Positions 29,775 to 63,687 are shown, counted from the stretch's first letter. The stretch is DNA of 64,000 nt from Candidatus Pacearchaeota archaeon (GCA_038874355.1 JAVZCO010000001.1:231637-295636), one strand, 5' to 3'. Made by a program: numbers and translations. The notes: a model not told the origin generated them from the sequence alone.

Positions 29775-30176
29775 TTAAACTATTATTAATGCTATTTTAG
29801 CTATTTCTTTCCATCTTTCTGAAATTTCCCTTGGTATAGGACCTTTTATTTGAGTCCCTTTTGGATTTCCCTTTTCATCTTTTAGTAATACAACAGCATT
29901 ATCTGTAAAAGCTATTCTTTCTCCATTTTTTCTTCTTATTGGTTTTTTTTGTCTTATGACAACGGCATCAAATACTTTTCCTTTCATTTCAGGATTACCT
30001 TCCCTTACACTAACCTTTACCCAATCTCCAATTCCGCAACGAGCTTGCCTACCTTTTCTAGATTTTTTTTTCTTTACCCCAATAATCTTAACTATTCTTG
30101 CGCCAGAATTATCAGCAGCTATAACATAACTTCCTATATTTAATGCATTAGGTATTTTTGAAGATATTGCTTTCAT
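29775..30176 (-). CDS. rpl14: 50S ribosomal protein uL14
   Basis: ADNSGARIVKIIGV... FDAVVIRQKKPIRRKNG. Confidence 0.85.
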   Translation of the reverse strand: MKAISSKIPNALNIGSYVIAADNSGARIVKIIGVKKKKSRKGRQARCGIGDWVKVSVREGNPEMKGKVFDAVVIRQKKPIRRKNGERIAFTDNAVVLLKDEKGNPKGTQIKGPIPREISERWKEIAKIALIIV

Positions 30177-30559
30177 TTTTTATTTCCTTCTTTTATTATA
30201 TCTAATAAAACAAAATGAATAATTTTACTTAAAGGCCTACACTCTTGTATTAATACATAATCCCCTATTTTTACTTTTTCTTCCATACATTTAGGTAATC
30301 TAGCATGCAATCTTGTTTTCTTTTTTAAATATCTTTCATACTTTTTTATATAAACTGTTCTCTCAAATTCTATAACAATTCTTCTCGGAAATTTTTTTAT
30401 AACATACCCCTCAAATTTTCTTCCTCTAACTTTTAGATATCCATGGATAGGACAATCTTTATCATTACATTTTTCTTTATTCTTGCTATCAATTTTCTTT
30501 TTTTCTATATTTTCATCTATCTTTTCTTTCTCTTCTTCTTTTATTTCTTTATTTTCCAT
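30173..30559 (-). CDS. rps17: 30S ribosomal protein uS17 with 29-aa KE-rich N-terminal extension
   Basis: C-terminal RKFEGYVIK...GDYVLIQECRPLSK is uS17. N-terminal MENKEIKEEEKEKIDENIEKKKIDSKNKE is identical to the uL22 N-terminus. Confidence 0.75.
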   Translation of the reverse strand: MENKEIKEEEKEKIDENIEKKKIDSKNKEKCNDKDCPIHGYLKVRGRKFEGYVIKKFPRRIVIEFERTVYIKKYERYLKKKTRLHARLPKCMEEKVKIGDYVLIQECRPLSKIIHFVLLDIIKEGNKK

Positions 30560-30574
30560 TTTATTATTATTTTA
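30471..30574. repeat. 104-nt perfect direct repeat, copy A (uS17 5' end plus 17 nt upstream)
   Basis: Identical to 32158-32261 base for base by manual alignment. Confidence 0.8.
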
Positions 30575-30863
30575 TATTACCCTCCTTAAATCCAAGATTT
30601 ATTAATATTTCTTTAATTTTTTTACTATGATCCCCTTGTAATTCTATAATATTATTTTTTATTGTTCCTCCACATGCAAGTTTTTTCTTTAATTCTTTTA
30701 ATATCTCTTTTATATTCACACTTTTATCAAATCCGCTAACTACTGTTATTATTTTTCCAAATTTTCTTTTTTCTGTTATTACTTTAATTTCTTGATTTTC
30801 TCTGCTTATTTCACTGCATATACATATATTTTTTGGTAATCCGCACTTTGGACAGATATCCAT
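30567..30863 (-). CDS. sui1: translation initiation factor SUI1 (aSUI1/eIF1)
   Basis: GKIITVVSGFD...LACGGTIKNNIIELQGDH matches the SUI1 family. Canonical archaeal position between L29 and S17. Confidence 0.8.
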   Translation of the reverse strand: MDICPKCGLPKNICICSEISRENQEIKVITEKRKFGKIITVVSGFDKSVNIKEILKELKKKLACGGTIKNNIIELQGDHSKKIKEILINLGFKEGNIK

Positions 30864-31715: not shown

Positions 31716-32246
31716 TTATTCTAATTCTAATTTACCTTTTGCTTTAATTAAAATATGAGTTCTCTTAAACCTTCTTGTTCCAAATCTTCTATAAGGTCTT
31801 GAAGCTTTATCTGCTTTTGCAAAAAAGATAAATGGTTCTTCTATGTTATGATAAACAGCATTTGCATTTAAATTTTTTAATAATTTTATAAAAGTTTTTG
31901 TAGCTTTTATTGGATATCTGCCACTTTTCATATTCTTTCTATGTGGAATTTCTCCTTTCATTGGTACAGCTTTTTTAAATTTTAAAACCAATTCTAAATC
32001 CTTTAATGCTTTTTTTATTTCTTTTCCTTTAATAAATTTACATAATGCTACCGAATGTTTTGTTGATATTGATAAATCTCTTCCTCTAACAATTACTTCT
32101 TTAATTTTTTTTTCTTCTTTCTTTGTGTCATTGTTATGTGATTCTTTGTTTTCTAAATTTTCTTTATTCTTGCTATCAATTTTCTTTTTTTCTATATTTT
32201 CATCTATCTTTTCTTTCTCTTCTTCTTTTATTTCTTTATTTTCCAT
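31716..32246 (-). CDS. rpl22: 50S ribosomal protein uL22 with ~50-aa KE-rich N-terminal extension
   Basis: VRGRDLSISTKHSVALCKFIKG is the uL22 core. The first 29 aa are identical to the uS17 N-terminus. Confidence 0.75.
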   Translation of the reverse strand: MENKEIKEEEKEKIDENIEKKKIDSKNKENLENKESHNNDTKKEEKKIKEVIVRGRDLSISTKHSVALCKFIKGKEIKKALKDLELVLKFKKAVPMKGEIPHRKNMKSGRYPIKATKTFIKLLKNLNANAVYHNIEEPFIFFAKADKASRPYRRFGTRRFKRTHILIKAKGKLELE

Positions 32247-32261
32247 TTTATTATTATTTTA
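32158..32261. repeat. 104-nt perfect direct repeat, copy B (uL22 5' end plus 17 nt upstream, including the S19 stop codons)
   Basis: Identical to 30471-30574. Confidence 0.8.
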
Positions 32262-32652
32262 CTGACATAAAAGCAGAGCTTCTTGTAGCTCCGATACCAG
32301 GTGCCCCATGTTTAACACCTTTTCTTGTTACGGAAAATTCTCCTAATCTATGTCCTAACATATCTTCTGTTATTTTTACAGCGACAAATTCTTTTCCATT
32401 ATGAACATATATTGTTAATCCAACCATTTGTGGTACTATTATCATATCTCTATAAAGAGTTCTTATAGGTTTTCCCTTTTCATTATATTTTTTCCACCTT
32501 TTTATTATTTTTTCAATTTCTGAAAAATTTCTTAATATAGTTCTCCTTTCCCTAGATGTTATATATTTTGCAAATTCACGAATATCCATTTCTTTCAATT
32601 CTTCTAAAGTTTTTCCTCTTAATGTAAATTTTTTCTTTTCTATTTCTATCAT
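32254..32652 (-). CDS. rps19: 30S ribosomal protein uS19
   Basis: [27 protein letters not shown], a highly conserved S19 core. Confidence 0.85.
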
Positions 32653-37295: not shown

Positions 37296-38765
37296 ATGAA
37301 TTTAAAAGTAAAATTTTTGAATTTTTCAGCAGGAAGGCCGATAATAATTTTAAATAAAACTTTTGCTAAAAATAATGCAATTCACGTAGATAGTAGAATT
37401 AATATAATCTATAAAAATAAAGAAATAATTGCAGTTGTAGATTTAGCTTCTAATTTCATTAAAGAAAATGAAGCAATAATATCTTCAGAAGTTGTTAATT
37501 ATTTAAATATACATGAAGGAGAAGAAATAAAAATAACATTGGCAAAAAAACCTATAAGTACTAAATATATTTTAAAAAAATTAAATAATAAAAAACTTAA
37601 TAAAGAAGAGATAAGAAGTATAATAAAAGATATATCTATAAATGCTTTAACAGAATCTGAAATTGCTTTTTTTGTTTCTGCTGTATATAAGTGTGGAATG
37701 TCTTTTAAAGAACTTATTTATATGATAGAAGCAATCGTAGAAACTGGAAAAAAATTAAATCTCGGAAATAAAATAGTTGTAGATAAACATAGCATAGGTG
37801 GAATTCCAGGAAGAGTTACTCCAATTATAGTTTCTATTTGTGCTGCAGCTGGATTAACTATACCAAAAACTTCTTCAAGAGCAATAACAACCCCTTCTGG
37901 AACAGCCGATGCATTAGAAACTATCTGTAAAGTAGATTTTTCTTTGAAAGAAATAAAGGAAATAATAAAAAAAACAAATGCATGTTTTGTTTGGGGCGGT
38001 TCTTTAGATTTAGCCCCAGCAGATGATAAAATTATACAGATAGAAAAAATAATTAATTTAGATCCAGAAGCTCAATTATTAGCTTCAATTATATCAAAGA
38101 AAATTGCTGTAGGAGCAAAATATGTTGTTATAGATATTCCTTACGGAAAATTTGCTAAAGTTTCTTTTTCTAAAGCAATAAAATTAGAAAAAAAATTTTT
38201 AGAAATAGCAAAATATTTTAAAATAATTTTAAAATGTTCTTTAAAAGAAATAAATGAGCCTCTTGGTAATGGAATTGGTCCAGCACTAGAAATACAAGAT
38301 GTAATAAAAGTTTTATCTTTAAAAGACTCGTGCAATAAATTAGAAGAAAGAGCTTTAGAATTATCTTCAATTATTTTAGAAATGACAGGAAAAGCAAAAA
38401 TAGGAAAAGGTAAAGAATTAGCAAAAAAAATATTGTATTCAGGAAAAGCTTTTGAGAAATTTAATGAAATAATAAAAGCACAGAAAGGAGATATAAATTT
38501 TAAGTTTAAAGAAGCACAATATAAAAAAGATATCCTAGCAGAAAAAAAAGGAATTATTAAAGAAATAAATATAAAATTAATTAATTACCTCGCTATTTTA
38601 GCAGGATGCCCTATGGACAAATATGCAGGAATCTATTTACATAAACATCTAAATCAAGAAGTAAAGAAAGGAGAAAAAATATTAACAATATATTCTGAAA
38701 ATGAAGAACAATTGAATAATGTAATAAAAATTTATAACGAAAATAATCCAATAATAATAAAATGA
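37296..38765 (+). CDS. deoA: AMP phosphorylase / thymidine phosphorylase family (glycosyl transferase family 3)
   Basis: N-terminus MNLKVKFLNFSAGRPIIILN (AMP phosphorylase-type). HSIGGIPGRVTP and TSSRAITTPSGTADALE motifs. Confidence 0.75.
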   Translation: MNLKVKFLNFSAGRPIIILNKTFAKNNAIHVDSRINIIYKNKEIIAVVDLASNFIKENEAIISSEVVNYLNIHEGEEIKITLAKKPISTKYILKKLNNKKLNKEEIRSIIKDISINALTESEIAFFVSAVYKCGMSFKELIYMIEAIVETGKKLNLGNKIVVDKHSIGGIPGRVTPIIVSICAAAGLTIPKTSSRAITTPSGTADALETICKVDFSLKEIKEIIKKTNACFVWGGSLDLAPADDKIIQIEKIINLDPEAQLLASIISKKIAVGAKYVVIDIPYGKFAKVSFSKAIKLEKKFLEIAKYFKIILKCSLKEINEPLGNGIGPALEIQDVIKVLSLKDSCNKLEERALELSSIILEMTGKAKIGKGKELAKKILYSGKAFEKFNEIIKAQKGDINFKFKEAQYKKDILAEKKGIIKEINIKLINYLAILAGCPMDKYAGIYLHKHLNQEVKKGEKILTIYSENEEQLNNVIKIYNENNPIIIK

Positions 38766-40474
38766 TGAGTAGTTTTATACAACTTAGTTTAATTCTTTTT
38801 ATTGTTTTATTTATTTCTACTATCTTAAGAATTTTAAAACAACCATTAATAGTAGGATATATATTGTGTGGTATTTTATTAGGACCCTCCTTCTTAAACA
38901 CCGTTAAAAATAATGAAATAATATTAACATTTTCAGAAATTGGAGTCTCTTTTCTTTTATTTTTAGTTGGTATGTATTTAAATCCAAAAAAAATAAAAGA
39001 ATTTGGTAAAATTTCTTTAATAACTGGTATAGGTCAATTTGTTTTTACTTCTTTAATAGGATATTTTATATCCCGTCTATTAAATTTTTCAATATTAACT
39101 TCTATTTATGTTTCAATAGCATTAACTTTTTCTTCTACAATTATAATAACAAAACTCTTATCAGATAAAGAGTCTCTTGATAAATTATATGGAAAAATAT
39201 CGATAGGATTTTTACTAGTTCAAGATTTGATTGCAATGTTCCTTTTGATTTTTCTTTCATCTTATTCAGAACAAACTACTTCGTTAATTTTTTTTTATAA
39301 GATGATAATAAGAGGAATACTAATAATTCTAATAATCATTCCAATTAGTATATTTGTTATAAATAAATTTAGTCAATTTTTTGCAAAATCACAAGAGTTA
39401 TTATTTATTTTTGCTATATCCTTTGGTCTACTCTTTTCTTCTTTATTTTTTTATTTAGGATTCTCAATTGAAGTTGGAGCTTTAGTTGCAGGAATAATTA
39501 TTTCTACTTCTCCTTATAGTTATGAAATAAGTTCTAGACTAAAACCTCTAAGAGATTTTTTTATTATTTCTTTTTTTATTGTTCTTGGAAGTAAAATGAC
39601 TTTGCCTAACCTTTCTGTTCACATTATCCCTATAATTATTTTTTCTTTTTTTATTCTAATAGGAAATCCTTTAATTGTTATGATTTTAATGGGGATTTTT
39701 GGTTATAGTAGAAATACTAGTTTTATGTGTGGTTTAACAGTTGCTCAAATAAGCGAATTTTCTTTAGTATTAATTTCTTTGGGAGTTAAATTAGGACATA
39801 TATCAGAAGATATTCTTTCTCTTGTAACCGCAGTAGGTTTAATTACTATATTATGCTCTACTTATTTAATAATTTATTCTGAAAAGATCTATTTTAAAAT
39901 ATCTAAATATTTGTCTGTATTTGAAAGAAAAAGAATAAGAGAAATACAATATAAAGATAAAGAAAAAAAATATGAATACATCCTTTTAGGAGAAAATAGA
40001 ATAGGTTTTTCTATAATGAATTATTTTATTAATTCAAATAAGAATTATCTTATTGTAGATTTTAATCCAGAAAGAATAACAAGATTAAAAAAACAAGGAA
40101 TTAATTGTATTTATGGAGATGTTTCGAATGTAGAATTTTTAGATAATCTAAATCTTAAAAATGCAAAATTAGTTGTTTCTACAATACCAGAAAAAGAAAT
40201 TAGTTTATTAATTTTAGAAAGAACAAAAAAGAAAAATAAAAATATTGTTGTTATATTAACTGCAAGACAAATAAGAGAAGCATTAGAATTGTATAAAGAA
40301 GGGGCAGATTATGTTATATTACCACATTTTTTAGGAGGAGAATATACTTCTCAATTAATATCTAGATATAATATAAATTTAAAAAAATATGAAGAAGAAA
40401 AAATAAAGCATATAAAAGAATTAAAAAAAAGATTAATAGAAAAACAAGAACATCCATATACAGAGAGAGATTAA
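38762..40474 (+). CDS. CPA2 cation:proton antiporter (Kef-type) with C-terminal TrkA-N/RCK domain
   Basis: 13 TM helices with the Na_H_Exchanger pattern, then a Rossmann-like region (ILLGENRIGFSIMNYF...DVS). Confidence 0.7.
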   Translation: MMSSFIQLSLILFIVLFISTILRILKQPLIVGYILCGILLGPSFLNTVKNNEIILTFSEIGVSFLLFLVGMYLNPKKIKEFGKISLITGIGQFVFTSLIGYFISRLLNFSILTSIYVSIALTFSSTIIITKLLSDKESLDKLYGKISIGFLLVQDLIAMFLLIFLSSYSEQTTSLIFFYKMIIRGILIILIIIPISIFVINKFSQFFAKSQELLFIFAISFGLLFSSLFFYLGFSIEVGALVAGIIISTSPYSYEISSRLKPLRDFFIISFFIVLGSKMTLPNLSVHIIPIIIFSFFILIGNPLIVMILMGIFGYSRNTSFMCGLTVAQISEFSLVLISLGVKLGHISEDILSLVTAVGLITILCSTYLIIYSEKIYFKISKYLSVFERKRIREIQYKDKEKKYEYILLGENRIGFSIMNYFINSNKNYLIVDFNPERITRLKKQGINCIYGDVSNVEFLDNLNLKNAKLVVSTIPEKEISLLILERTKKKNKNIVVILTARQIREALELYKEGADYVILPHFLGGEYTSQLISRYNINLKKYEEEKIKHIKELKKRLIEKQEHPYTERD

Positions 40475-51814: not shown

Positions 51815-53125
51815 CTATCTTTCTAAACTTTCCTTCGTCTCTTTTAAATCAAATTTTTCTTCATATCTTTTTGTTCTTTCTTTTAATATTTCTTTTGCTT
51901 CTTTTTTCTTTATCTTCGTCTTTTTTATAATAAAAAATATTAAACCACCTAAAATAATTATTAAAATAAATACAACAAAATTAGTATTCTTATTATTTTT
52001 ATCTTTTATTAATTTTACACATTCTGCATTTAAACAACATTTTTTTTCATAAGGATATTCTAAACTTTTTTCTAAGCTACTATTACAATATTCATCTTGG
52101 TTACATATTTTCCCAATTTCATAACAATGCTTCAAATATTCTTTACTTTCATTAACTAAAGATTCGTTTTCTGTTAATTTTATAAAAAATTTCATTTCTG
52201 TAAAATAATAAGGATAAAAACTTTCTGCTGCTATATTACCATATAAATCATTTGGTGGGGATATAATTCCTATTTCTATTTCTGAATAATTTTTAGAAGG
52301 AATAATATTTATTTTTTTAGGATATATATCGACATAATCATTTAATTCAGAAGATATTGTAATTTTTATTTCTTTAATGTCAAATGTTCCATTATTAAAA
52401 AGATAGATTTTTTTATTTATTTGAGAATTATTTTTAATATATATAGTTTCATTTAAAGGGTAAAAAATTAATATATTTGTAAAATTAGAAAAATTTTCTA
52501 TATTATTATTCGTTAAATTATGGTATGGGTAAATAAGAATTGGGATTTCGTACTTTTGATTTTCACATTCAATAATTATTTTTTTCATAGAATTATTTTT
52601 AATATCTTTTATAGAAAAAAGAATATTTTTTTCTTCTCCAGCTTTAAGAGAAAAATTTTTTATTTCTTTCTCAAAAGTTGTTTTTACATTAATATTCCCT
52701 TTATTAGAAATAACTTTTATAAAAAAATCTTTATTAGTAATAATAAAGCCAGGATTTATACTACACAAAGAAATATTTCCTTTAACAGAAAAATTAAATT
52801 TTAAATCTTCTTTTTTTATTTTTCCCTCTTCAAAGTAATATACATCTTTTATTATTAATGTATAATTTCTTTCTTTGTTTGGTAAAATAGCATATAAATA
52901 ATAAGAATTTTCTATTTTATTTATATCATATATCATAGATATAAAAATTCCATCCGAATAAAAAAATATATTATCTGCTTTTATATTTTCTAAAAAATTA
53001 CCATCTATTTTTATTATTAAAGTTTCTAATGGAGAATATTCATTCTTTAAATTAGTTTCTATACCCAAACTTAACGGAATAACAAATAAGAAAAATGATA
53101 AAATAAAAAATATTTTTATTCTCAT
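51815..53125 (-). CDS. secreted surface protein with Cys-rich stalk module and C-terminal TM anchor
   Basis: Signal peptide MRIKIFFILSFFLFVIPLSLG. C-terminal CYEIGKICNQDEYC...KKCCLNAEC then TM FVVFILIIILGGLIFFII + KK-rich tail. Confidence 0.4.
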   Translation of the reverse strand: MRIKIFFILSFFLFVIPLSLGIETNLKNEYSPLETLIIKIDGNFLENIKADNIFFYSDGIFISMIYDINKIENSYYLYAILPNKERNYTLIIKDVYYFEEGKIKKEDLKFNFSVKGNISLCSINPGFIITNKDFFIKVISNKGNINVKTTFEKEIKNFSLKAGEEKNILFSIKDIKNNSMKKIIIECENQKYEIPILIYPYHNLTNNNIENFSNFTNILIFYPLNETIYIKNNSQINKKIYLFNNGTFDIKEIKITISSELNDYVDIYPKKINIIPSKNYSEIEIGIISPPNDLYGNIAAESFYPYYFTEMKFFIKLTENESLVNESKEYLKHCYEIGKICNQDEYCNSSLEKSLEYPYEKKCCLNAECVKLIKDKNNKNTNFVVFILIIILGGLIFFIIKKTKIKKKEAKEILKERTKRYEEKFDLKETKESLER

Positions 53126-53180: not shown

Positions 53181-55073
53181 TTATTCTTTGCTTAATTCCC
53201 TCAATTTTTTCATTGTTTCTTCTAATTCTTCATCTTTTTTAGAAGATTGTGCAGGCTTTTTTATCGGTTGTTGTATAGTCCTTAAAGGAGTAATTTGTTT
53301 TTGTTGATATTGCTGTTTTGGCAAACTTCCTAAACCATATCTTTGTAATGGTAAATAAGATTTTGAAGTAGGATAAGTTGTTGAAGTTGAAGGTGGAAAT
53401 GGAGGTCTTTTTGTTTTTATAACACTACTTTCTTTATAACCACTTCTTCTTTTAAAAAGAACAATCCTTATTCTGTTTCTGAAAATTATTAATAAGATTA
53501 CTATTATTATCATCAGTACTAATAAAAAGATTAATAATCCCTTTCCTTTCTTAGGTTCTTCTTTTTCTGAACAACATACTTTATTATCATTACATTCATA
53601 ATCTTTTTCTTCTTCATAATCTTTACAAGAAATTCTACAAGTATAATTATAACTTTCACATTCACTTTCTTCTTCTTTCTTTTCGCATTCTCCTAAACAA
53701 CAATAATTAGTATCAGCTGCATTAACAGTAGAAATAGAACATATTTCATCATTTTTACATATTTCTCCATAGCCATAATAACCAGATAGTTTTTGCATTT
53801 CGGAACATTTTTTCAAAATTATATTTTTTGAGCAACATTTATTTAATCCACTACAATAATATTGACTTAAAACTTCTCCTCCAACATCTTCACAATCTAA
53901 TGCAGACAAACAAAAATACCCTTTATCTATACAATTTTCTTTTTGAGGTATCTCATCACTACTTACTACAGATGGTCTTGGCCACCCAGCCCACAGTAAA
54001 AAAGAAGTATCTCTTATATTACCATTATTCCAGCATCCATCTTGTTGTTGCATTTCTTTTAACCATTCTTCTAATTTATTAAATGATTCATAAGACTTTG
54101 TTTTTATAGAAAATAAAGCAATAGCACTATCATAAAATTTTCCCTTTCCACTATTTAAATCCCAATAACCTTGACTTTTTTGTAAAGAAAGAATGTTTTC
54201 TATGTAATCATCAGTTTTAGTAAAATAATACAAAAAAGCATCTGGAAATAATTTTTGATTATCATCAGAATAAATAACTAAATATGGAATAAAATTTTTT
54301 ATATCATAACCGGCTTGTTGTAAAGCTAAAGAAGCAAATAAAGAAGCTTCATAATTACAATTATTTTTATCATCAGAAAAACAAAAATAGTTAATATTAT
54401 GAGTGACTTCGCTATTAGCAGAACCGGAATTTACTTCACTAGAAACATACCATACGTCGCTAATTATAGATTTTTTGTATAATAAAGTTGTAATAAAATT
54501 TTCGCTACAAGAAATAGTGAAATTATTGTCGAAACAACTCTCTTTAATTCTTAACCAATATCCATTATTTGCAATTTCTAAACAAGAACTAGAAGTAAAA
54601 GTAATTTTTTTATCTTCATTTATTATTAGTTTTGTATTGCCATTGTTCCATTTAACACTACAATTGCTTTTTTTTTCACTATCTATTACTAAATAAACCT
54701 GAATATCTTTTGCCTTTATTTTTTTACTTATTAACCATTCTTCTAATTTTAAAGTATTCTGATTGGAGTAATGTAAAGCTAATGTTGCTAAAGCAGTATC
54801 TTTAACTTTACAAGAATTTTTTGGGAAACAGTCATTAGATTTTTCTTTATTTATTTCTGTAACTAATTTGGAATTAAAAGAAGAATCATGAGCTAATGCA
54901 AGTAAAGAAAAACTTTTTTCTTCTAAGGATAAAGAATTTATTTTTTCATTTACTTTTTGTTTTAAACAAGAATATGCTTTTTCTTCCATCGTTTCATTAG
55001 AAGTAGCTATTACTAAATTTAAACAAAAAATTATAAAAAGAAAGGATAACATAAAACTTACTCTTTTTTTCAT
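53181..55073 (-). CDS. secreted surface protein with prenyltransferase/squalene-oxidase-like repeats, Cys-rich stalk, TM anchor and Pro/Gln-rich cytoplasmic tail
   Basis: Signal MKKRVSFMLSFLFIIFCLNLVIA. QSQGYWDLNSG and QQQDGCWNNGNIRDTSFLLWAGW resemble QW/PFTB repeats. Cys-rich block (GEICKNDEICS...CCLGEC), TM LLIFLLVLMIIIVILLIIF, ~100-aa tail. Confidence 0.45.
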   Translation of the reverse strand: MKKRVSFMLSFLFIIFCLNLVIATSNETMEEKAYSCLKQKVNEKINSLSLEEKSFSLLALAHDSSFNSKLVTEINKEKSNDCFPKNSCKVKDTALATLALHYSNQNTLKLEEWLISKKIKAKDIQVYLVIDSEKKSNCSVKWNNGNTKLIINEDKKITFTSSSCLEIANNGYWLRIKESCFDNNFTISCSENFITTLLYKKSIISDVWYVSSEVNSGSANSEVTHNINYFCFSDDKNNCNYEASLFASLALQQAGYDIKNFIPYLVIYSDDNQKLFPDAFLYYFTKTDDYIENILSLQKSQGYWDLNSGKGKFYDSAIALFSIKTKSYESFNKLEEWLKEMQQQDGCWNNGNIRDTSFLLWAGWPRPSVVSSDEIPQKENCIDKGYFCLSALDCEDVGGEVLSQYYCSGLNKCCSKNIILKKCSEMQKLSGYYGYGEICKNDEICSISTVNAADTNYCCLGECEKKEEESECESYNYTCRISCKDYEEEKDYECNDNKVCCSEKEEPKKGKGLLIFLLVLMIIIVILLIIFRNRIRIVLFKRRSGYKESSVIKTKRPPFPPSTSTTYPTSKSYLPLQRYGLGSLPKQQYQQKQITPLRTIQQPIKKPAQSSKKDEELEETMKKLRELSKE

Positions 55074-55149: not shown

Positions 55150-55479
55150 ATGAGACTCGGCGATTTAATCTCTTTAATTTTTGAAGAATACAGAAAGGGA
55201 GAAGAAAATCTAAAAGATCCTTTATTAGAAATTACAAGAGAATTAATAAATATAGAAAATATAGTGCAAGAAACTTATCCGTTTTTTAAAATATCAAATG
55301 TCTATTTATTCTCTTTAGATATCAGTTTAAAAAAATATGAAGAAATTCAAAATAAATCAAATTTGATTAATTTTATTGAAACTCTTAATTTAAGAGAAGA
55401 ATTAAGAGAATATCTGGAGAATAAAGTTATAGAAAATTACAAAAATAAATATCCATTTATTAACAAATTTTTAAAATGA
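55150..55479 (+). CDS. hypothetical protein
   Basis: 109-aa ORF, convergent with and overlapping the Cas4-like gene end by 9 nt. Confidence 0.3.
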   Translation: MRLGDLISLIFEEYRKGEENLKDPLLEITRELINIENIVQETYPFFKISNVYLFSLDISLKKYEEIQNKSNLINFIETLNLREELREYLENKVIENYKNKYPFINKFLK

Positions 55480-56271
55480 ATTTTCATTAAAACAAATATT
55501 TTTAAAATTACACATTTGACATTTTTTAAAATTACTGATTATTGGTATACTTTTCTTTTCTTTTAATACATTTTTAATTTCTTCCAAAATTTCTAAAAAT
55601 TCTTTCTTTAATTTATCATTAATTTCAATTTTCTTTTCTTCTTTTTTTGTTTCTATAAAGCCAAAATTAACTTTTCTATCAAATTTCTCTTCTAACAATA
55701 AGGCATATCCAACCAATTGCAGTTTATCTTCTTCATAAATTCTATCTTTATTTTTTATTTCATAAGGAATAATATTATCATTTATCTCCACCCTATCTAT
55801 TCTTCCCTTTAAAAATAATTTTTTAGAAATTATCTCAATTTCTGAATAATATTTTCTTGGTAAATTTTCCCATAATTTTTCTTCAAAATATCCTTTATTT
55901 ATTCCTTCTTCCAGAGAAGATACTCTCAACAAAATTTCCCTTTCTAATTTATTTAAAATATTTTTCTTTAATTCAAATACATTTATATTATATTTTAAAA
56001 TTTTTTCTTCATTTATTTTTATTATTTCACTTAATATTTTTAATACTTCAAATTTATACATCTTTAATATTTCTTCTCTGCCTATTTTTTTTCTTATTCT
56101 TGTTATTATTTCTTTTTCATTTTTATTAAATATATCAAAAATATCATGTTTAATCTTTCCTTCAATCATTCTAGGTGTTGGTTTTTCTTTAATTTTCATT
56201 ATTCTTTTTATATACATCTTTCTTGGGCAATATAGATAAGAAGCAATTTCTGTAACATTTAAAAATCTCAT
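55471..56271 (-). CDS. Cas4-like PD-(D/E)XK nuclease (DUF83) with Fe-S cysteines
   Basis: N-terminal ASYLYCPRKMYI (Cas4 YxxCPR motif). RIDRVE...YEIKN (D..EhK catalytic motif). C-terminal CQMCNFKNIC (three Cys). Confidence 0.6.
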   Translation of the reverse strand: MRFLNVTEIASYLYCPRKMYIKRIMKIKEKPTPRMIEGKIKHDIFDIFNKNEKEIITRIRKKIGREEILKMYKFEVLKILSEIIKINEEKILKYNINVFELKKNILNKLEREILLRVSSLEEGINKGYFEEKLWENLPRKYYSEIEIISKKLFLKGRIDRVEINDNIIPYEIKNKDRIYEEDKLQLVGYALLLEEKFDRKVNFGFIETKKEEKKIEINDKLKKEFLEILEEIKNVLKEKKSIPIISNFKKCQMCNFKNICFNENSF

Positions 56272-57500
56272 TTTTTTTTCATTATTTTATTTTTTAGTAT
56301 AGTATAATTAATAGGATTTTTTATCTTTTTACAAAAATCATCAGAATAACATATATCTATATCCTTGTAATAAGATTTATCACAATTAGGAGGTAATATT
56401 CCCTTGTGTAAAAAATTATATTTTATTTGTTGTAATAAATAATTTTCTTTTAAAGGTTTTTTATTTTTTAAATTCCATTCCTCTACTTTTTTTAATATTT
56501 CTTCTTTTGTAAAATTTAAACTTCTATAATAATTTATTAAAATAAAAAGAGCTCTTTTTCTTCCATCATCTAAGCCTTCTAATATTTTTTTTATACACGG
56601 AGGGTAATATATTGTAGATTTGTCTATTTCTATTTTTTCAAAATTTTTTGTATAAATTTTTTCTTCTTTTTTTATACTTTCTTTCCAATCTAATGCTTGT
56701 ATTAGTAATTCCTTTGCTTCATTTTTTCTAGCTTCTGGATAAAAATTTTTTACTTTTATTTTTAAGTAATGAGCATCCTTCGGTTCAAATGAATCTAATT
56801 CTTTTTTTTCTATAACAACAGAAACTAAACCAGTTTTTTCATGTAAAGAATAAGGAGTTCTGAATAAATGTCTTGAGGAAACTAGAACTAAGTCGGGAAT
56901 AACTCTTTTTGCTTCTTGTTCGTCCCTTATGTAATCTTTTTTTGTTGTTATCCTTGAAATTTCTTTTATTAATTCTTTTTCAACAAACTTATGTAAATAA
57001 GAAATTATTGTCCTAGGAAATTCTGGGAACATCTTCCTTATTTCAATATTGTTTATTTTTTCTGGAAAAGCTTTCCATGGAATTATTATGTGGAATCCTT
57101 TGCTTCCAGAAAATTTTATTCCATAATTTTTTATATCATGGAATTCTAAGGTTTTTATTATTAGCTTAGTCATTATTTTACTATATTCAAAGTATTTACT
57201 ATCGATATCTAAAATTAAATCCCAACCAATTCTTAATTCATCCATTTCTTTTCTATCTAAATTTTTACTTAAATCTAAAGGATTTTTCCATAATTCTTCG
57301 GAACAATGGAAACTTGTAGCACCTTTTTTAACTTCTTGTAAGATTTCATCTTCATATTCTATTATATTTGGCCTTTTTCCAAAATTTTCTTGATATTTTG
57401 TTATCGTTTCTCTGTTTTTACAAAAATCTTTTATTGCTTTTTGTATCTCTTTTCTAGAATAATAAATCTTGCTTATTTCTTTTATACTCTCTTTTTTCAT
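56268..57500 (-). CDS. DNA primase, fused PriS (catalytic) - PriL C-terminal Fe-S domain (Nanoarchaeum-type)
   Basis: Central WDLILDIDSK (primase DxD catalytic motif). C-terminal YYPPCIKKIL...PPNCDKSYYKDIDICYSDDFC resembles the PriL 4Fe-4S domain (PPC motif). Stop overlaps the Cas4-like start (ATGA). Confidence 0.5.
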   Translation of the reverse strand: MKKESIKEISKIYYSRKEIQKAIKDFCKNRETITKYQENFGKRPNIIEYEDEILQEVKKGATSFHCSEELWKNPLDLSKNLDRKEMDELRIGWDLILDIDSKYFEYSKIMTKLIIKTLEFHDIKNYGIKFSGSKGFHIIIPWKAFPEKINNIEIRKMFPEFPRTIISYLHKFVEKELIKEISRITTKKDYIRDEQEAKRVIPDLVLVSSRHLFRTPYSLHEKTGLVSVVIEKKELDSFEPKDAHYLKIKVKNFYPEARKNEAKELLIQALDWKESIKKEEKIYTKNFEKIEIDKSTIYYPPCIKKILEGLDDGRKRALFILINYYRSLNFTKEEILKKVEEWNLKNKKPLKENYLLQQIKYNFLHKGILPPNCDKSYYKDIDICYSDDFCKKIKNPINYTILKNKIMKKK

Positions 57501-57555
57501 TTTTATATAAAAAATAATAACAAAGCTTTTAAACTCTTCCTTTTATTTATTTATT

Positions 57556-58278
57556 ATGTTATTAAAATTTATTAATCCTAAATTATTTGTAGATATAATA
57601 AGTATAATTTCAGAATTAGTCACAGAAGTGAAAATAAAAATAAATAAAGATGGTTTAACAATAATAGCAATAGATCCCGCTAATGTTTCTCTGGTTTATT
57701 TTAAAATTCCACCATCCGCATTTTCTATTATAGATATTGAAGAAGAAGAAATATTAGGAGTTAATTTAGATAATCTAAAAACAATACTTAAAAGATATTC
57801 AGCAGGAGATTTAATTTTTCAAACAGAAGAAAATTCTCTAATCATAGAAATACAAGAAAAAATAAAAAGGACTTTTAATCTAGCATTAATAAGTTTGGAT
57901 GAAGAGGAAAAATCAATTCCTACTTTAGATTTCAAAGCAAATGTTCAAATGAGTAGTGTAGATTTTGATATAGCAATACAAGATTGTTCTATAGTTTCAG
58001 AATCTTGTGCATTTATAATTAAAGATAATAAATTTGTCATAGAAGCTCATAGCTTAAATTCAGCAAAATTAGAATTTTCCTCTGATGAAGTTAAAGTGGC
58101 AGGAATCGCTAAATCTAAATATTCTTTAGAATATTTAAAAAAATTTACTAAAGCTTGCAAATTAACAGATAGTGTTTCAATAAGTTTTGCTGATGATTAT
58201 CCATTACAATTAAAATTTTATTCTTCTTCCTTTGAATTAATTTTTATTTTAGCCCCAAGAGTTGAGACAGAAGATTAA
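57556..58278 (+). CDS. pcn: DNA polymerase sliding clamp PCNA
   Basis: 240 aa. MLLKFINPKLFVDIISIISELVTEVKIKINKDGLTIIAIDPANVSLV is a typical PCNA N-terminus, two-domain length. Confidence 0.8.
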   Translation: MLLKFINPKLFVDIISIISELVTEVKIKINKDGLTIIAIDPANVSLVYFKIPPSAFSIIDIEEEEILGVNLDNLKTILKRYSAGDLIFQTEENSLIIEIQEKIKRTFNLALISLDEEEKSIPTLDFKANVQMSSVDFDIAIQDCSIVSESCAFIIKDNKFVIEAHSLNSAKLEFSSDEVKVAGIAKSKYSLEYLKKFTKACKLTDSVSISFADDYPLQLKFYSSSFELIFILAPRVETED

Positions 58279-58433: not shown

Positions 58434-58580
58434 ATGAAATTAAGAATTTCTGCAACTATAGAAAAAGAAACTCTAGAAAAAATTAAAAAAATTCTTAATA
58501 AAGGAAAGTATCGTAATTTATCTCATTTTATAGAGGAGGCAATAAAAGATTTTTATGAGAGAAATAAAGGTGGAAGATAA
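58434..58580 (+). CDS. ribbon-helix-helix (CopG/Arc-like) small DNA-binding protein (48 aa)
   Basis: MKLRISATIEKETLEKIKKILNKGKYRNLSHFIEEAIKDFYERNKGGR shows a beta-strand ISATIEKE plus two helices, the RHH pattern. Not in the ORF track. Confidence 0.5.
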   Translation: MKLRISATIEKETLEKIKKILNKGKYRNLSHFIEEAIKDFYERNKGGR

Positions 58581-59811: not shown

Positions 59812-62800
59812 ATGAGAAATAAAAGAGGAAAAAAAGATAAAATAATAAGCATATTTGAAATTCTCTTACTTTTAACAGCAACTTTTGCTTTTGCTTATTT
59901 AATAGGAATAGCAACAAATTCTATTACTATTGTAAGTGCTTCCCAAGATATTATTAATTGTTGTCCAGAAACAAAAAATGGTCAAATATGTCAAGAAATT
60001 CCTTATGCAAAATGTAGTGAAGAATGTAATCAATTATGCTCATATTCAAGATGTTCGGAAGTTAGCGAATGTAAATTAGGATGTTGTATAGATAAACAAG
60101 AAGGAAATTGTATTCCAAATACACCAGAAATTTTATGTAGAGAATCTAATACCGAATGGAAGGATGATGCTTCTTGTAATTATAATGAATGTAAACCAGG
60201 ATGTTGTATTATAGGAGATAAAACAATCTTTGTTAACGCAAAAAAATGTGAAATTTTGACTTTGCTTAATGGATTATCAACAATAACAAATTATGACTTC
60301 AGGCAGGGAATGACAGAAATTGAATGTATCGCCTTAGAAAAAAGTACAATTAAAGGAGCATGTTTATTTGTTACAGATGAAAAAACAAATTGTAAAATTT
60401 TAACAAAAGAGGAATGTATAAGACAAACAGGGAGTTATTCTTATTTTTATGAAAATTATTTATGTACAGCTGCAGAATTAAACACTACTTGTAATCCAAC
60501 AACAAATACAACTTGTGTTGATGGAAAAGATGAAGTATATTTTGTTGATTCTTGTGGAAATATAGCAAATATTTACGATTCATCAAAAATTTATAATCCA
60601 AATGACAACAGTTCTATAGAATATTGGACAAAAATTTTTTCAAAAGAAGAATCTTGCAATAATAACTCAGGAAATATTAATTCTGCTTCATGTGGAAATT
60701 GTAATTATCTATTAGGTAGTAGATGCGGAAATTATATTGAAGGAAGATCTCCACAAAATGCTAAGCCAAATTATGGAAATTTTTATTGTAAGGATTTAAA
60801 TTGTTATGATGTTCCTCTTGCCATAAACACAAAAGGAGAAGTTTTGTTAAAAGGAGATAAAAAACATGGGGAACAATGGTGTATCTATGAAACAACAATT
60901 GGAAATGAAACCCAAGATTTAATTATCGGGTATAAAAGAGAAAGAATTAATCCTTTTATATCTAGGGATGTTCCAATAGTTCACAAGACAATTTCTGGAA
61001 GTGATCCTGTAGGTTCTCGTCATTATATAGCAACTTGTTATAATGGAGAATTTTCAATACAGCCTTGTGATGAATATAGAGATAAAATATGTATTCAATC
61101 AGATATAATTATAAATAACATAACTAATGAAAACTTTTCTTCTGCTTCATGTATAGTCAATTTATGGCAAGATTGTTTAAATTATAATTTTCAAATTAAT
61201 AATAATGTAGAAGGGCAAACAACAAATGATATGATGAATGAGTGTTTAAAAAATGAATTTTGTTATGTGAAACAAATAGATATAGATAAATATTTTAATT
61301 TTCCAATATGTCTACCTAAATATAAACCAGCATTTGATTTAACAAATAGAGAGGGTTCTTCTAAAGAAATATGTTCTATGGCATCTCAAACTTGTAAAGT
61401 TATTTATGTGAAAAAATTTTCTGGATGGAAATGCAAAGCCAATTGTGATTGTCTTACAAAAGAATTTACATTAAAAATGAATGAATTTTGTAGAAGTTTA
61501 GGTGATTGTGGAGCTCAAATTAATGTTGCTGGTGAAGTTACAACAAGTAGTTTTAAAGTTTCACGAGCACCACCAATAACCGCTCAAGATATAAAAAATC
61601 TTAATTACTCAAATTTATTAAATATAGAGATAGGAGAATATGCTAGTATTGAAAATTTAAGTTATATTATCAATAGGATGAATATCCCTCCAGAAATGTT
61701 AGAATCAGAAAAATTATTTTCCTCTTCTTTCTTAGGAAGTATCATTGGTGGAACAGGAATACTTTATGCTATTTCCTTACATAATTTAGCAGGAACTGGG
61801 GCAACTCTTTCTCAAATATTTGAATTAGCATTCACAGGAGTTACTACTGTTAAAGAAGCAATATTTTCTTTACCATTTCTTTCAAAGTTATCAAGTCTTC
61901 TTGCAGGTTTTTCAATAGGTTATATGCTATCAAAATTTTTTGGGCTAAGTGAAGGAGCAGCAATTGCAATTGGAGTAATAGGAGCTGTAGTTGCTTTTTA
62001 TGGAATTACTCAAGGATGGTTTAGCATTACAACTTTAGGATTTATTGGTTTAACTATAATAATTTTAAGTTTTTTATTTGGAATAGGAAAAAAGAAAGTA
62101 GTGCAAGTTACTTCAACATGCTCTCCTTATCAAGTTCCAATTGGAGGAGAAAATTGCGATTTTTGTAATAAAAATGAATACCTCCCTTGCAATAGATATA
62201 AATGTACTTCTTTAGGAACAGCATGTAAATTCATAAATGAAGGAACACCACAGGAAAAATGTATAGCAAGTATTAATGATCATACTGCTCCAATCATTTC
62301 TCCATTAAAATTTGATAATTATACTTATAATGAACTTCAAAATGGTTATGAAATAAAAACAAAAAATAACGAATGCTTTGAAGCATGGCAAGATATTTTA
62401 TTAGGAATAACAACTAATGAAGTTTCTCAATGTAAAATTTCTTTAAATCCTGGAAGTTCTCCTACATATTTTGATAATATTCCAGAATATTTTCCCAATA
62501 CAATTTACCAAGAAAATCACACTTTATTATATAAATTACCTTCTGCAGATTTATTAGGAGCAATCGGTTTTAGTCCAACTAGAACAGGAACAATTAATTT
62601 TTATATAAGATGTCAAGATGATTGGGGAAATAAAAATACTGTAGATTATATAATAAAAACATGTGTAAAACCAGAACCAGATAAAACACCACCTATAATA
62701 AATAAATTTTCTCCAGAAGAAGAAAATGCTTATTTAGGTTTTGAAAAAAATAATTTTTCTTTAACAATTTTCACAAACGAACCAGCAGAATGTAAGTATA

Positions 62801-63687
62801 GTTTTATTAATAAAAATTATGATGAAATGGAATATAATTTTAGTTGCTCCTCAAATAAAATACTTTCTCCAGAAGAACTTTTTTCTTCAATCAACGAAAC
62901 AGAAGATGAAACAGAAGTAGAAATAAATTTTTCTGAGATATCTTACACAAAAGAAGATATTTTAAATTCTTATCTTTCTATGCAAACAATATTTGGTTTT
63001 CCTTGTTATGCAGAAATAAATACAAAAGACAATTATACAATATTTATAAAATGCAAAGATCAACCATGGTATGAAGAAGAAAATGAATCTTTAAGAAATG
63101 TAAATTTACAACCTCAACCATTAAATGGTTATACAATAAAAAAATCTTTATCTCAATTAAATATAGATTCTATTCTACCTAAAGGTGAAATTTTAGCAGG
63201 AACATCTCCATTTACTATAGAATTAATTGCAACAACTTCTGGTGGGGTTGATGGAAAAGCTACATGCTATTACTCTTTTAATGGTAAAGATTTTTCAATG
63301 TTTTATGAAACTGGTTCAACAAAACACAAACAAACTTTTAATCAAATTATTGAAGGGGATTATACAATATATGTTAAGTGTATAGATAAGGCAGGAAATA
63401 TTGCTTTAAACAGCACAACTTTTTACTTACAGACAGATACAAAAGCCCCAAAAGTAATTAGAACTTATTCTTCTCTTGGAATTTTAACAATAATAACAGA
63501 TGAAGAATCTTATTGTAGTTATTCTGCATCTAATTGTAACTTTATGTATGAAAACGGAACTTCGATGGAAAATTACGGGAAAATTCATACTACCCCAGTT
63601 CAATATGGCAAAACATATTACATAAAATGTAAGGATATTTATGGAAATTTACCTTCTCAATGTAGCATAATTATAAGAAATATATAA
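59812..63687 (+). CDS. giant (1291 aa) Cys-rich secreted/surface protein with a central polytopic membrane segment
   Basis: N-terminal signal/anchor KIISIFEILLLLTATFAFAYLIG. More than 80 Cys in CxxxC / CC-containing modules. Residues ~640-760 form 4-5 hydrophobic helices (GTGILYAISL...GLTIIILSFLFGIGKKK). C-terminal Cys-rich beta-like repeats. Confidence 0.5.
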   Translation: MRNKRGKKDKIISIFEILLLLTATFAFAYLIGIATNSITIVSASQDIINCCPETKNGQICQEIPYAKCSEECNQLCSYSRCSEVSECKLGCCIDKQEGNCIPNTPEILCRESNTEWKDDASCNYNECKPGCCIIGDKTIFVNAKKCEILTLLNGLSTITNYDFRQGMTEIECIALEKSTIKGACLFVTDEKTNCKILTKEECIRQTGSYSYFYENYLCTAAELNTTCNPTTNTTCVDGKDEVYFVDSCGNIANIYDSSKIYNPNDNSSIEYWTKIFSKEESCNNNSGNINSASCGNCNYLLGSRCGNYIEGRSPQNAKPNYGNFYCKDLNCYDVPLAINTKGEVLLKGDKKHGEQWCIYETTIGNETQDLIIGYKRERINPFISRDVPIVHKTISGSDPVGSRHYIATCYNGEFSIQPCDEYRDKICIQSDIIINNITNENFSSASCIVNLWQDCLNYNFQINNNVEGQTTNDMMNECLKNEFCYVKQIDIDKYFNFPICLPKYKPAFDLTNREGSSKEICSMASQTCKVIYVKKFSGWKCKANCDCLTKEFTLKMNEFCRSLGDCGAQINVAGEVTTSSFKVSRAPPITAQDIKNLNYSNLLNIEIGEYASIENLSYIINRMNIPPEMLESEKLFSSSFLGSIIGGTGILYAISLHNLAGTGATLSQIFELAFTGVTTVKEAIFSLPFLSKLSSLLAGFSIGYMLSKFFGLSEGAAIAIGVIGAVVAFYGITQGWFSITTLGFIGLTIIILSFLFGIGKKKVVQVTSTCSPYQVPIGGENCDFCNKNEYLPCNRYKCTSLGTACKFINEGTPQEKCIASINDHTAPIISPLKFDNYTYNELQNGYEIKTKNNECFEAWQDILLGITTNEVSQCKISLNPGSSPTYFDNIPEYFPNTIYQENHTLLYKLPSADLLGAIGFSPTRTGTINFYIRCQDDWGNKNTVDYIIKTCVKPEPDKTPPIINKFSPEEENAYLGFEKNNFSLTIFTNEPAECKYSFINKNYDEMEYNFSCSSNKILSPEELFSSINETEDETEVEINFSEISYTKEDILNSYLSMQTIFGFPCYAEINTKDNYTIFIKCKDQPWYEEENESLRNVNLQPQPLNGYTIKKSLSQLNIDSILPKGEILAGTSPFTIELIATTSGGVDGKATCYYSFNGKDFSMFYETGSTKHKQTFNQIIEGDYTIYVKCIDKAGNIALNSTTFYLQTDTKAPKVIRTYSSLGILTIITDEESYCSYSASNCNFMYENGTSMENYGKIHTTPVQYGKTYYIKCKDIYGNLPSQCSIIIRNI

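Follow-up and report, generated by a model that had tools for sequence, protein, structure and literature searches.

We analysed a 64-kb stretch of DNA (hereafter the window) from a 575,629-bp contig of a Pacearchaeota metagenome-assembled genome, a source that we counted as cellular context, and focused on a gene for a Cas4-family nuclease that directly follows the gene for a fused PriS-PriL DNA primase, with the gene for the sliding clamp PCNA transcribed in the opposite direction (Table 1). The locus is an ordinary group of replication genes on the chromosome of a Pacearchaeota-type DPANN archaeon, and every component is of a known kind. We lean towards the explanation that the nuclease is a vertically inherited housekeeping iron-sulfur (Fe-S) enzyme acting on single-stranded DNA (ssDNA) or DNA ends, and that its gene is expressed together with that of the replicative primase. 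A 55-bp spacer with a conserved element resembling an archaeal B recognition element (BRE) and TATA box would then drive PCNA in one direction and the primase operon in the other. The operon would consist of the single-chain PriS-PriL replicative primase typical of the lineage and a solo Cas4 gene overlapping the primase stop codon. The nuclease, co-expressed with replisome genes and taking no part in CRISPR adaptation, would most likely contribute a metal-dependent activity on ssDNA or 5' ends to the housekeeping processing of DNA ends, flaps or stalled forks. The identities of the genes, their intact motifs, the layout of the operon, the synteny across the lineage and the lack of CRISPR or mobile-element features are shown; co-transcription of the two genes, and the enzymatic activity and replication or repair role of the nuclease, are what we infer. 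We counted in favour of that role that both main neighbourhoods of these Cas4 genes centre on replisome genes, that the gene is stable in position and vertically inherited, that relatives are missing from viral contigs (scans of IMG/VR with both alignments recovered no relatives of Cas4 or of primase), and that the fold family includes Dna2, MGME1 and EXO5.

By family models and motifs, the nuclease is a bona fide Cas4-family protein with four predicted Fe-S cysteines and an enlarged helical region. It scores 100.3 bits against the TIGR00372 cas4 model (cutoff 65) and 67.3 against PF01930 (2e-18, cutoff 22.7), and is also matched by PF12705 (3e-15) and by the PADLOC Cas4 model (3e-29). NCBI labels it 'CRISPR-associated protein Cas4' and labels the primase 'DNA primase small subunit domain-containing protein'. 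Across 35 homologues the motifs Y14-C15-P16-R17, D159, E171-I-K173, Q185...Y189 and C251-x2-C254-x5-C260 are invariant, as are H42 and E144, and the RecB-type PD-(D/E)XK signature (D, ExK, QxxxY) is complete. Between the first cysteine and the catalytic core lies a helical insert of ~90 aa (aa 33-125). We also considered whether the protein could be a RecB/AddB fragment; the curated Cas4 thresholds, the motifs and the proximity of its profile to CRISPR Cas4 led us to reject that identity.

The fold of the nuclease is that of MGME1, EXO5, CRISPR Cas4 and the nuclease domain of Dna2. Its AlphaFold2 model (pLDDT 93.6) finds its best Foldseek matches in the Protein Data Bank (PDB) in the nuclease domain of Dna2 (PDB 5EAN; 8e-9, TMq 0.53) and in type I-C Cas4 (1e-7), with further matches to Cas4-Cas1 fusions, Pcal_0546, MGME1, ACE1, AdnAB/AddB, SSO0001 and EXO5. 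The Dna2 nuclease model PF08696 is passed at 31.7 bits against a cutoff of 22.4. At the level of sequence profiles, on the other hand, the protein is closer to CRISPR Cas4 (2e-13) than to Dna2 (3e-7). It has the Fe-S PD-(D/E)XK fold of Dna2 and EXO5, to which MGME1 is related; unlike Dna2, which is fused to an SF1B helicase, it has 266 aa and no helicase domain, and the functional analogy to Dna2, MGME1 and EXO5, at ~17-18% sequence identity, is one that we infer. Its catalytic and cysteine motifs are those of CRISPR Cas4 (type I-C, PDB 8D3L; Pcal_0546, 4R5Q; SSO0001, 4IC1), but it is ~50 aa longer, owns the enlarged helical region and has neither Cas1/Cas2 partners nor an array.

No CRISPR array was found by Tandem Repeats Finder anywhere in the window. 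Models for other cas genes and for defence genes matched none of the neighbours of the nuclease and, in Pfam scans, none of the ~50 open reading frames (ORFs) of the window, and no cas family occurs among the Pfam annotations of the loci of 11 relatives. Since there is no array in the window and no cas or defence gene nearby, the nuclease counts as a 'solo' Cas4. Such proteins are well documented, as most DPANN genomes, Pacearchaeota included, encode a solo Cas4 that is not CRISPR-associated; they are mostly vertically inherited under ordinary selection, and uncharacterised functions in defence or repair have been suggested for them (Hudaiberdiev et al. 2017, PMC5704561). The window nuclease resembles these DPANN proteins in its family (COG1468/PF01930), its four cysteines, the lack of cas1, cas2 or an array nearby and its origin from a small-genome archaeon.

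We then surveyed the Cas4 gene across relatives, taking one genome per GTDB species, which gave 80 loci that we examined by tblastn. The fused primase lies upstream on the same strand in 30 of them, usually with PCNA divergent from it, and in three more only the downstream 630-aa gene, which also follows Cas4 in the window, was found (two of them are on contigs that break off immediately upstream of Cas4). A different arrangement is found in 43 loci, where a divergent Trp/Tyr-tRNA synthetase gene, Cas4 and an 87-aa PRC-barrel gene follow one another, with the small subunit of the clamp loader RFC (RFC-S) coming next in 34. The last four are of other kinds or truncated and lie beside non-replication genes. 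While Hudaiberdiev et al. 2017 (PMC5704561) define solo Cas4 as lying outside characterised contexts, the subfamily of the window thus occurs in two recurrent ones, primase/PCNA and upstream of PRC-barrel (usually then RFC-S), which together account for 73-76 of the 80 species (>90%); replisome genes, be they primase/PCNA or RFC-S, are part of the neighbourhood in 63-66 (~80%). The position is stable across a Cas4 divergence that reaches down to ~30% identity. In a rough neighbour-joining tree, which is indicative only, the primase-linked Cas4 sequences are basal and paraphyletic and the RFC-linked ones are nested within them, which suggests an old primase linkage and a later relocation beside RFC. 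Primase, PCNA and RFC go unmentioned in Hudaiberdiev et al. 2017 and in those of its supplements that were consulted (PMC5704561), and we did not find the systematic placement of this solo-Cas4 subfamily beside primase/PCNA or RFC in the searchable literature; we regard it as modestly new.

The partner gene encodes a complete primase in a single chain. PF01896 (PriS) matches aa 107-230 with 7e-11, and PriL models match aa 246-399 weakly (NF002589, 3e-5; PF04104, 1e-3, below the PF04104 cutoff); a profile built from 45 primase homologues matches P. abyssi PriL (9F26_B) with E=3e-6 over the C-terminal Fe-S region. The residues D94, D98, D100, H137, D203, R210, H211 and H220 are invariant, among them the acidic triad and the His/Arg residues of archaeo-eukaryotic primases (AEPs), with D98-I-D100 as the catalytic DxD of PriS, and all four PriL cysteines (C302, C373, C384 and C390) are present. 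In the AlphaFold2 model (pLDDT 89.7) a flexible linker of low confidence at aa 284-287 connects two domains, and Foldseek matches the N-terminal domain to human Pri1, P. furiosus PriS, S. solfataricus PriS and the LigD PolDom (LigD-type AEPs). The fusion is real and no artefact of ORF calling, because there are more than 3600 homologues and those among the matches listed (n=120) are 401-475 aa long.

A priS-priL fusion was reportedly described by Raymann et al. 2014. It has since been found in all Undinarchaeota and cluster-2 DPANN genomes analysed by Dombrowski et al. 2020 (PMC7414124), and the N. equitans protein NEQ395, a cellular replicative primase, has been characterised biochemically (PMC10250227). 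On sequence grounds, the window primase belongs to this fused family, which is taken as the cellular replicative primase of cluster-2 DPANN (PMC7414124, PMC10250227). Like NEQ395, it is one chain of ~400 aa in which a linker helix connects the catalytic domain of PriS with the C-terminal domain of PriL and its four Fe-S cysteines; the cysteines are spaced by 71/11/6 residues, in contrast to 75/12/8 in NEQ395. Neither of these fused-primase papers (PMC7414124, PMC10250227) speaks of an operon that includes Cas4. In 8 of 45 close primase homologues all four PriL Fe-S cysteines are replaced jointly (S, Y/F, aliphatic/T, E); these are a subclade that seems to have lost its [4Fe-4S] cluster entirely, which fits the finding that the cluster of NEQ395 is dispensable in vitro (PMC10250227). 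In two relatives the primase is split into two ORFs (L006:4350-5903 and L023:327-1748), in the former roughly at the PriS/PriL boundary (230 + 282 aa); the secondary split may be real, or may stem from a frameshift or from faulty assembly.

The original prediction, made by a model from the sequence alone, holds in every point at the level of the genes. It had called the three ORFs exactly, together with the 4-bp ATGA shared by the primase stop and the Cas4 start and the divergence of PCNA across 55 bp. The Cas4-like motifs that it named (YCPR, D..EIK and a C-terminal CxxCxxxxxC) are those found invariant above in a protein that passes the curated Cas4 cutoffs and is no RecB/AddB fragment. Its single 410-aa Nanoarchaeum-type primase, with a PriS DxD and a PriL-like Fe-S domain, agrees with PF01896, the PriL models, the four cysteines and the lengths of the homologues, and its claim that the region lacks a CRISPR array or another cas gene is borne out by the searches of the window.

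The spacer between primase and PCNA is unusually short, at 55 bp compared with 72-380 bp in relatives. As the organism is archaeal, we tested it for an archaeal BRE/TATA-like motif rather than with a bacterial promoter scan. Such an element, AAAGCTTTTAAA, is found at 57522-57533 and begins 34 nt upstream of the PCNA ATG; because the spacer is so short, it also lies 22-33 nt upstream of the primase ATG on the opposite strand. Allowing up to two mismatches, 23 of 85 PCNA-primase loci have the motif at a distance of 34-35 nt from the PCNA start, against a background of 0.36 per kb. It would be the conserved BRE/TATA element of a PCNA mRNA with a short leader or none, and, being near-palindromic, it may serve both directions, which is speculative in a genome of 22% G+C.

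Seen from the primase, the linkage with Cas4 looks weaker. The adjacency of PCNA and primase is an ancient archaeal cluster (Berthon et al. 2008, PMC2643942). As in that PCNA-PriS(-Gins15) cluster, PCNA directly adjoins the primase here, but the two genes point away from each other, the primase has the fused form and no GINS gene was recognised in the vicinity; the small ORFs neighbouring PCNA and primase gave no Pfam match, and a divergent GINS could lie among them. PCNA is divergent upstream of the primase in 55 of 57 related loci. We surveyed the 80 primase loci closest to that of the window in JGI metagenomes. The conserved backbone is PCNA and the divergent primase, then the 630-aa gene, then a 436-aa gene; it recurs in well over 100 related chromosomal loci, and the homologues of the 630-aa gene directly follow Cas4 or, where Cas4 is absent, the primase. 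Cas4 stands at the primase/630-aa junction only in the lineage of the window. Ordering the primases by neighbour joining groups the Cas4-positive loci with that of the window, with a few Cas4-negative ones nested inside the group, and sets apart a large clade in which no locus has Cas4. To see whether Cas4 had moved rather than been lost, we compared the lengths of long primase contigs without an adjacent Cas4 (e.g. 651,920 and 409,447 bp) with those of contigs found by a profile search with RFC-linked Cas4; no lengths agreed among the best 120 of 527 profile matches.

Several of these results weigh against our preferred explanation and need to be set against it. Among the 51 primase loci with at least 1 kb of downstream sequence, only 5 contain Cas4, and in the other 46 a homologue of the 630-aa gene follows the primase within ~50-150 bp. 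Where the two genes are linked, a gap below ~90 bp or an overlap in 13 of 30 loci speaks for our explanation, but one to three unrelated genes separate primase and Cas4 in the rest. The overlap itself is weak evidence, as 7 of the 50 pairs of neighbouring genes on the same strand in the window share 4 bp in this way; the ATGA at 38762-38765, for instance, joins the unrelated genes of a nucleoside-phosphorylase-like protein (37296-38765, plus strand) and of a Na+/H+ exchanger with a TrkA-N domain (38762-40474, plus strand). The synteny of the 630-aa and 436-aa genes with the primase equals that of Cas4, and the 630-aa protein is a conserved synteny partner, not a replication protein; because these surface-protein genes are equally syntenic, conserved order here need not mean shared function. 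Cas4 also evolves faster than its neighbours, with 36-47% identity in the same loci where PCNA and primase show 51-62%. A regular-expression search for the PCNA-interacting (PIP) box found none in the window Cas4, only sporadic internal matches in relatives, and none conserved in the Cas4 family or the primase, so that this check, proposed with the original prediction, came out negative. Further points come from the literature. Some DPANN solo cas4 genes adjoin restriction-modification genes (PMC5704561), and the M. mazei Solo-Cas4, the sole characterised solo Cas4 that our literature search found, is a general double-stranded DNA (dsDNA) nuclease and nickase induced in stationary phase (PMC12501428). 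Like that protein, which has a [4Fe-4S] cluster, the window nuclease is a CRISPR-independent Cas4, but the M. mazei enzyme reportedly lacks the RecB motif, forms a large oligomer and nicks supercoiled dsDNA, whereas the window nuclease retains D...ExK...QxxxY. Taken as a whole, the patchy presence at the primase locus, the synteny of surface genes and the common ATGA overlaps are a warning against reading function from the gene order of compact genomes.

In replication and repair, flaps or 5' ssDNA are substrates of Dna2, MGME1 and EXO5, and this established knowledge speaks for a more specific proposal, in which the nuclease works physically with primase, PCNA or RFC as a dedicated partner in lagging-strand synthesis, where it would remove or trim long 5' flaps or RNA-DNA primers, much as Dna2 or FEN1 do. 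The geometry of the ATGA overlap, which is that of translational coupling, the replisome genes in both main alternative neighbourhoods (63-66 of 80 species), and the Dna2 nuclease domain as top structural match together with the PF08696 score of 31.7 bits against 22.4 point the same way. Against it stand the missing PIP box, the lack of a Cas4 gene in most of the close primase loci and a sequence profile nearer to CRISPR Cas4 than to Dna2; it is further weakened because synteny with unrelated surface-protein genes is equally conserved. We consider such a partnership quite improbable. The original prediction of a dedicated primase-nuclease module is right about adjacency and overlap, but 'dedicated' overstates the case for a lineage-typical primase within an old PCNA-primase cluster; the linkage of Cas4 and primase is conserved in relatives, though just in the window's own lineage (30-33 of 80 Cas4 loci, but only 5 of 51 primase loci). 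A role in immunity, where the nuclease degrades or restricts foreign DNA or otherwise serves an uncharacterised immunity pathway and owes its place in the primase operon to an accident of genome compaction, we judge unlikely, if worth keeping in view. The Cas4 family is best known from CRISPR adaptation, Cas4 is patchy at the primase locus, and toxin-antitoxin-like genes are inserted at the primase/Cas4 junction in some relatives. The suggested defence or repair roles and the restriction-modification genes adjoining Cas4 in some DPANN genomes (PMC5704561) also fit defence. However, no defence gene lies near the window Cas4, which keeps its position beside housekeeping genes across deep divergence (Cas4 identity down to ~30%) and is absent from the viral contigs of IMG/VR, and solo Cas4 is in general vertically inherited under ordinary selection (PMC5704561).

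The original prediction had also raised the alternative that the locus is the remnant of a casposon or of a primase-encoding mobile element. Primase and a Cas4-like nuclease do co-occur in many viral and plasmid replication modules, and phage exonucleases of the Cas4/RecB family are good structural matches to the window nuclease (TMq up to 0.61). Even so, this explanation is effectively refuted. The primase is of the fused type taken as the clade's cellular replicative enzyme (PMC7414124). Between 50 and 62 kb, a search for terminal inverted repeats and direct repeats returned only AT-rich low-complexity pairs of at most 84% identity, with nothing above the AT-rich background; no Cas1, PolB or integrase was found in the window, and an Rfam scan of it gave no matches. 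The only tRNA lies at 41.5 kb, 14 kb from the locus, so that no tRNA of the att type is nearby. G+C is uniform throughout the window, at ~22%, the backbone is in conserved chromosomal synteny in well over 100 related loci, and neither protein has relatives on viral contigs. The window also has ordinary cellular genes, including a glycosylation cluster with AglB/STT3, SecY, a ribosomal-protein operon, FtsZ, radical-SAM enzymes and one tRNA-Ser.

Genes for solo Cas4 are particularly frequent in DPANN and Candidate Phyla Radiation (CPR) organisms without CRISPR. The placement described here gives a concrete, testable hypothesis for their function, namely a replication-coupled or repair nuclease, and a compact system made of a monomeric primase, a small nuclease and PCNA is well suited to biochemistry. 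In its boldest form, which we put forward as a rather doubtful conjecture, the solo Cas4 of Nanoarchaeota-type DPANN would be a replisome-associated, helicase-less analogue of Dna2/MGME1; with primase and the clamp or clamp loader, it would trim 5' flaps or RNA-DNA primers, or restart forks, and selection would have kept the gene by primase/PCNA in one lineage and moved it by RFC in another. If true, this would be the first defined cellular function for a solo Cas4 and a hint at the role of Cas4 before CRISPR.

Table 1. Features in and around the primase-Cas4 locus, in coordinates of the window
Feature	Position	Strand	Remarks
Cas4-family nuclease gene	55471-56271	-	266 aa; ORF as originally predicted
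Fused PriS-PriL primase gene	56268-57500	-	410 aa; monomeric DPANN type
PriS (AEP) catalytic domain	56766-57500	-	~aa 1-245 of primase
PriL C-terminal helical domain	56271-56717	-	~aa 262-410 of primase
Primase stop/Cas4 start ATGA overlap	56268-56271	-	4 bp; sequence reading
Primase/PCNA divergent spacer	57501-57555	none	55 bp between start codons; sequence reading
PCNA sliding clamp gene	57556-58278	+	240 aa
109-aa ORF	55150-55479	+	lies in the 397 bp that separate Cas4 from the 630-aa gene; shares 9 bp with the Cas4 3' end
630-aa Cys-rich protein gene	53181-55073	-	N-terminal signal/transmembrane (TM) and C-terminal TM segment; no Pfam match
436-aa predicted surface/membrane protein gene	51815-53125	-	next conserved synteny partner

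At the overlap the minus strand reads ...AAA AAA AAA TGA for the primase end and ATG AGA TTT for the Cas4 start. PCNA has both its N and C domains (PF00705, 1e-11; PF02747, 9e-10) and matches NF002222 with 9e-50. Downstream of Cas4, the 397-bp gap before the 630-aa gene is unusually long; the 109-aa ORF within it matched no family and has no homologue in 171 related loci, and is doubtful, being an ORFan if it is a gene at all.

In relatives, the junction of primase and Cas4 is a hot-spot for insertions (L001/L014:7456-7986, L022:6455-6985, L017:3711-4268 and L012:5698-7938). The inserts encode an HD phosphohydrolase, an NT5C-type 5'-deoxynucleotidase, an Lrp/AsnC regulator, and a minimal nucleotidyltransferase, the last with an uncharacterised 181-aa gene after it; the nucleotide hydrolases among them are reminiscent of the NudF-PCNA linkage that Berthon et al. 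2008 (PMC2643942) had pointed out. In Woesearchaeota-type genomes (L007:6911-7174; L036-L090), the 87-aa PRC-barrel protein whose gene lies between those of Cas4 and RFC-S is 74-98% identical across species, far above its neighbours. Recent work links PRC-barrel proteins to archaeal cell division by FtsZ (bioRxiv 10.1101/2023.03.28.534520).

Large Cys-rich proteins with signal/TM segments and no Pfam family surround PCNA and primase; besides the 630-aa and 436-aa proteins there is one of 1291 aa (59812-63687, plus strand). The three genes keep their positions across relatives of the window lineage and likely encode lineage-specific surface proteins. On the 3' side of PCNA, an ORF of ~47 aa (58435-58578, plus strand), MKLRISATIEKETLEKIKKILNKGKYRNLSHFIEEAIKDFYERNKGGR, resembles a ribbon-helix-helix protein, and relatives have weak matches to Pfam RHH_1 at the same position (143 aa in L003, 139 aa in L004). 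The cumulative GC skew of the window reaches its minimum at 56001-58000, the point from which PCNA and primase diverge, which probably just reflects the switch of coding strand.

Away from the locus, the region of the ribosomal-protein operon contains an exact duplication of ~105 nt (~30468-30575 and ~32155-32262). It gives the ORFs at 30173-30559 and 31716-32246, both on the minus strand, an identical N-terminal extension of 29 aa, MENKEIKEEEKEKIDENIEKKKIDSKNKE, along with a few nucleotides of upstream DNA, so that the same lysine/glutamate-rich leader is grafted onto two different proteins.

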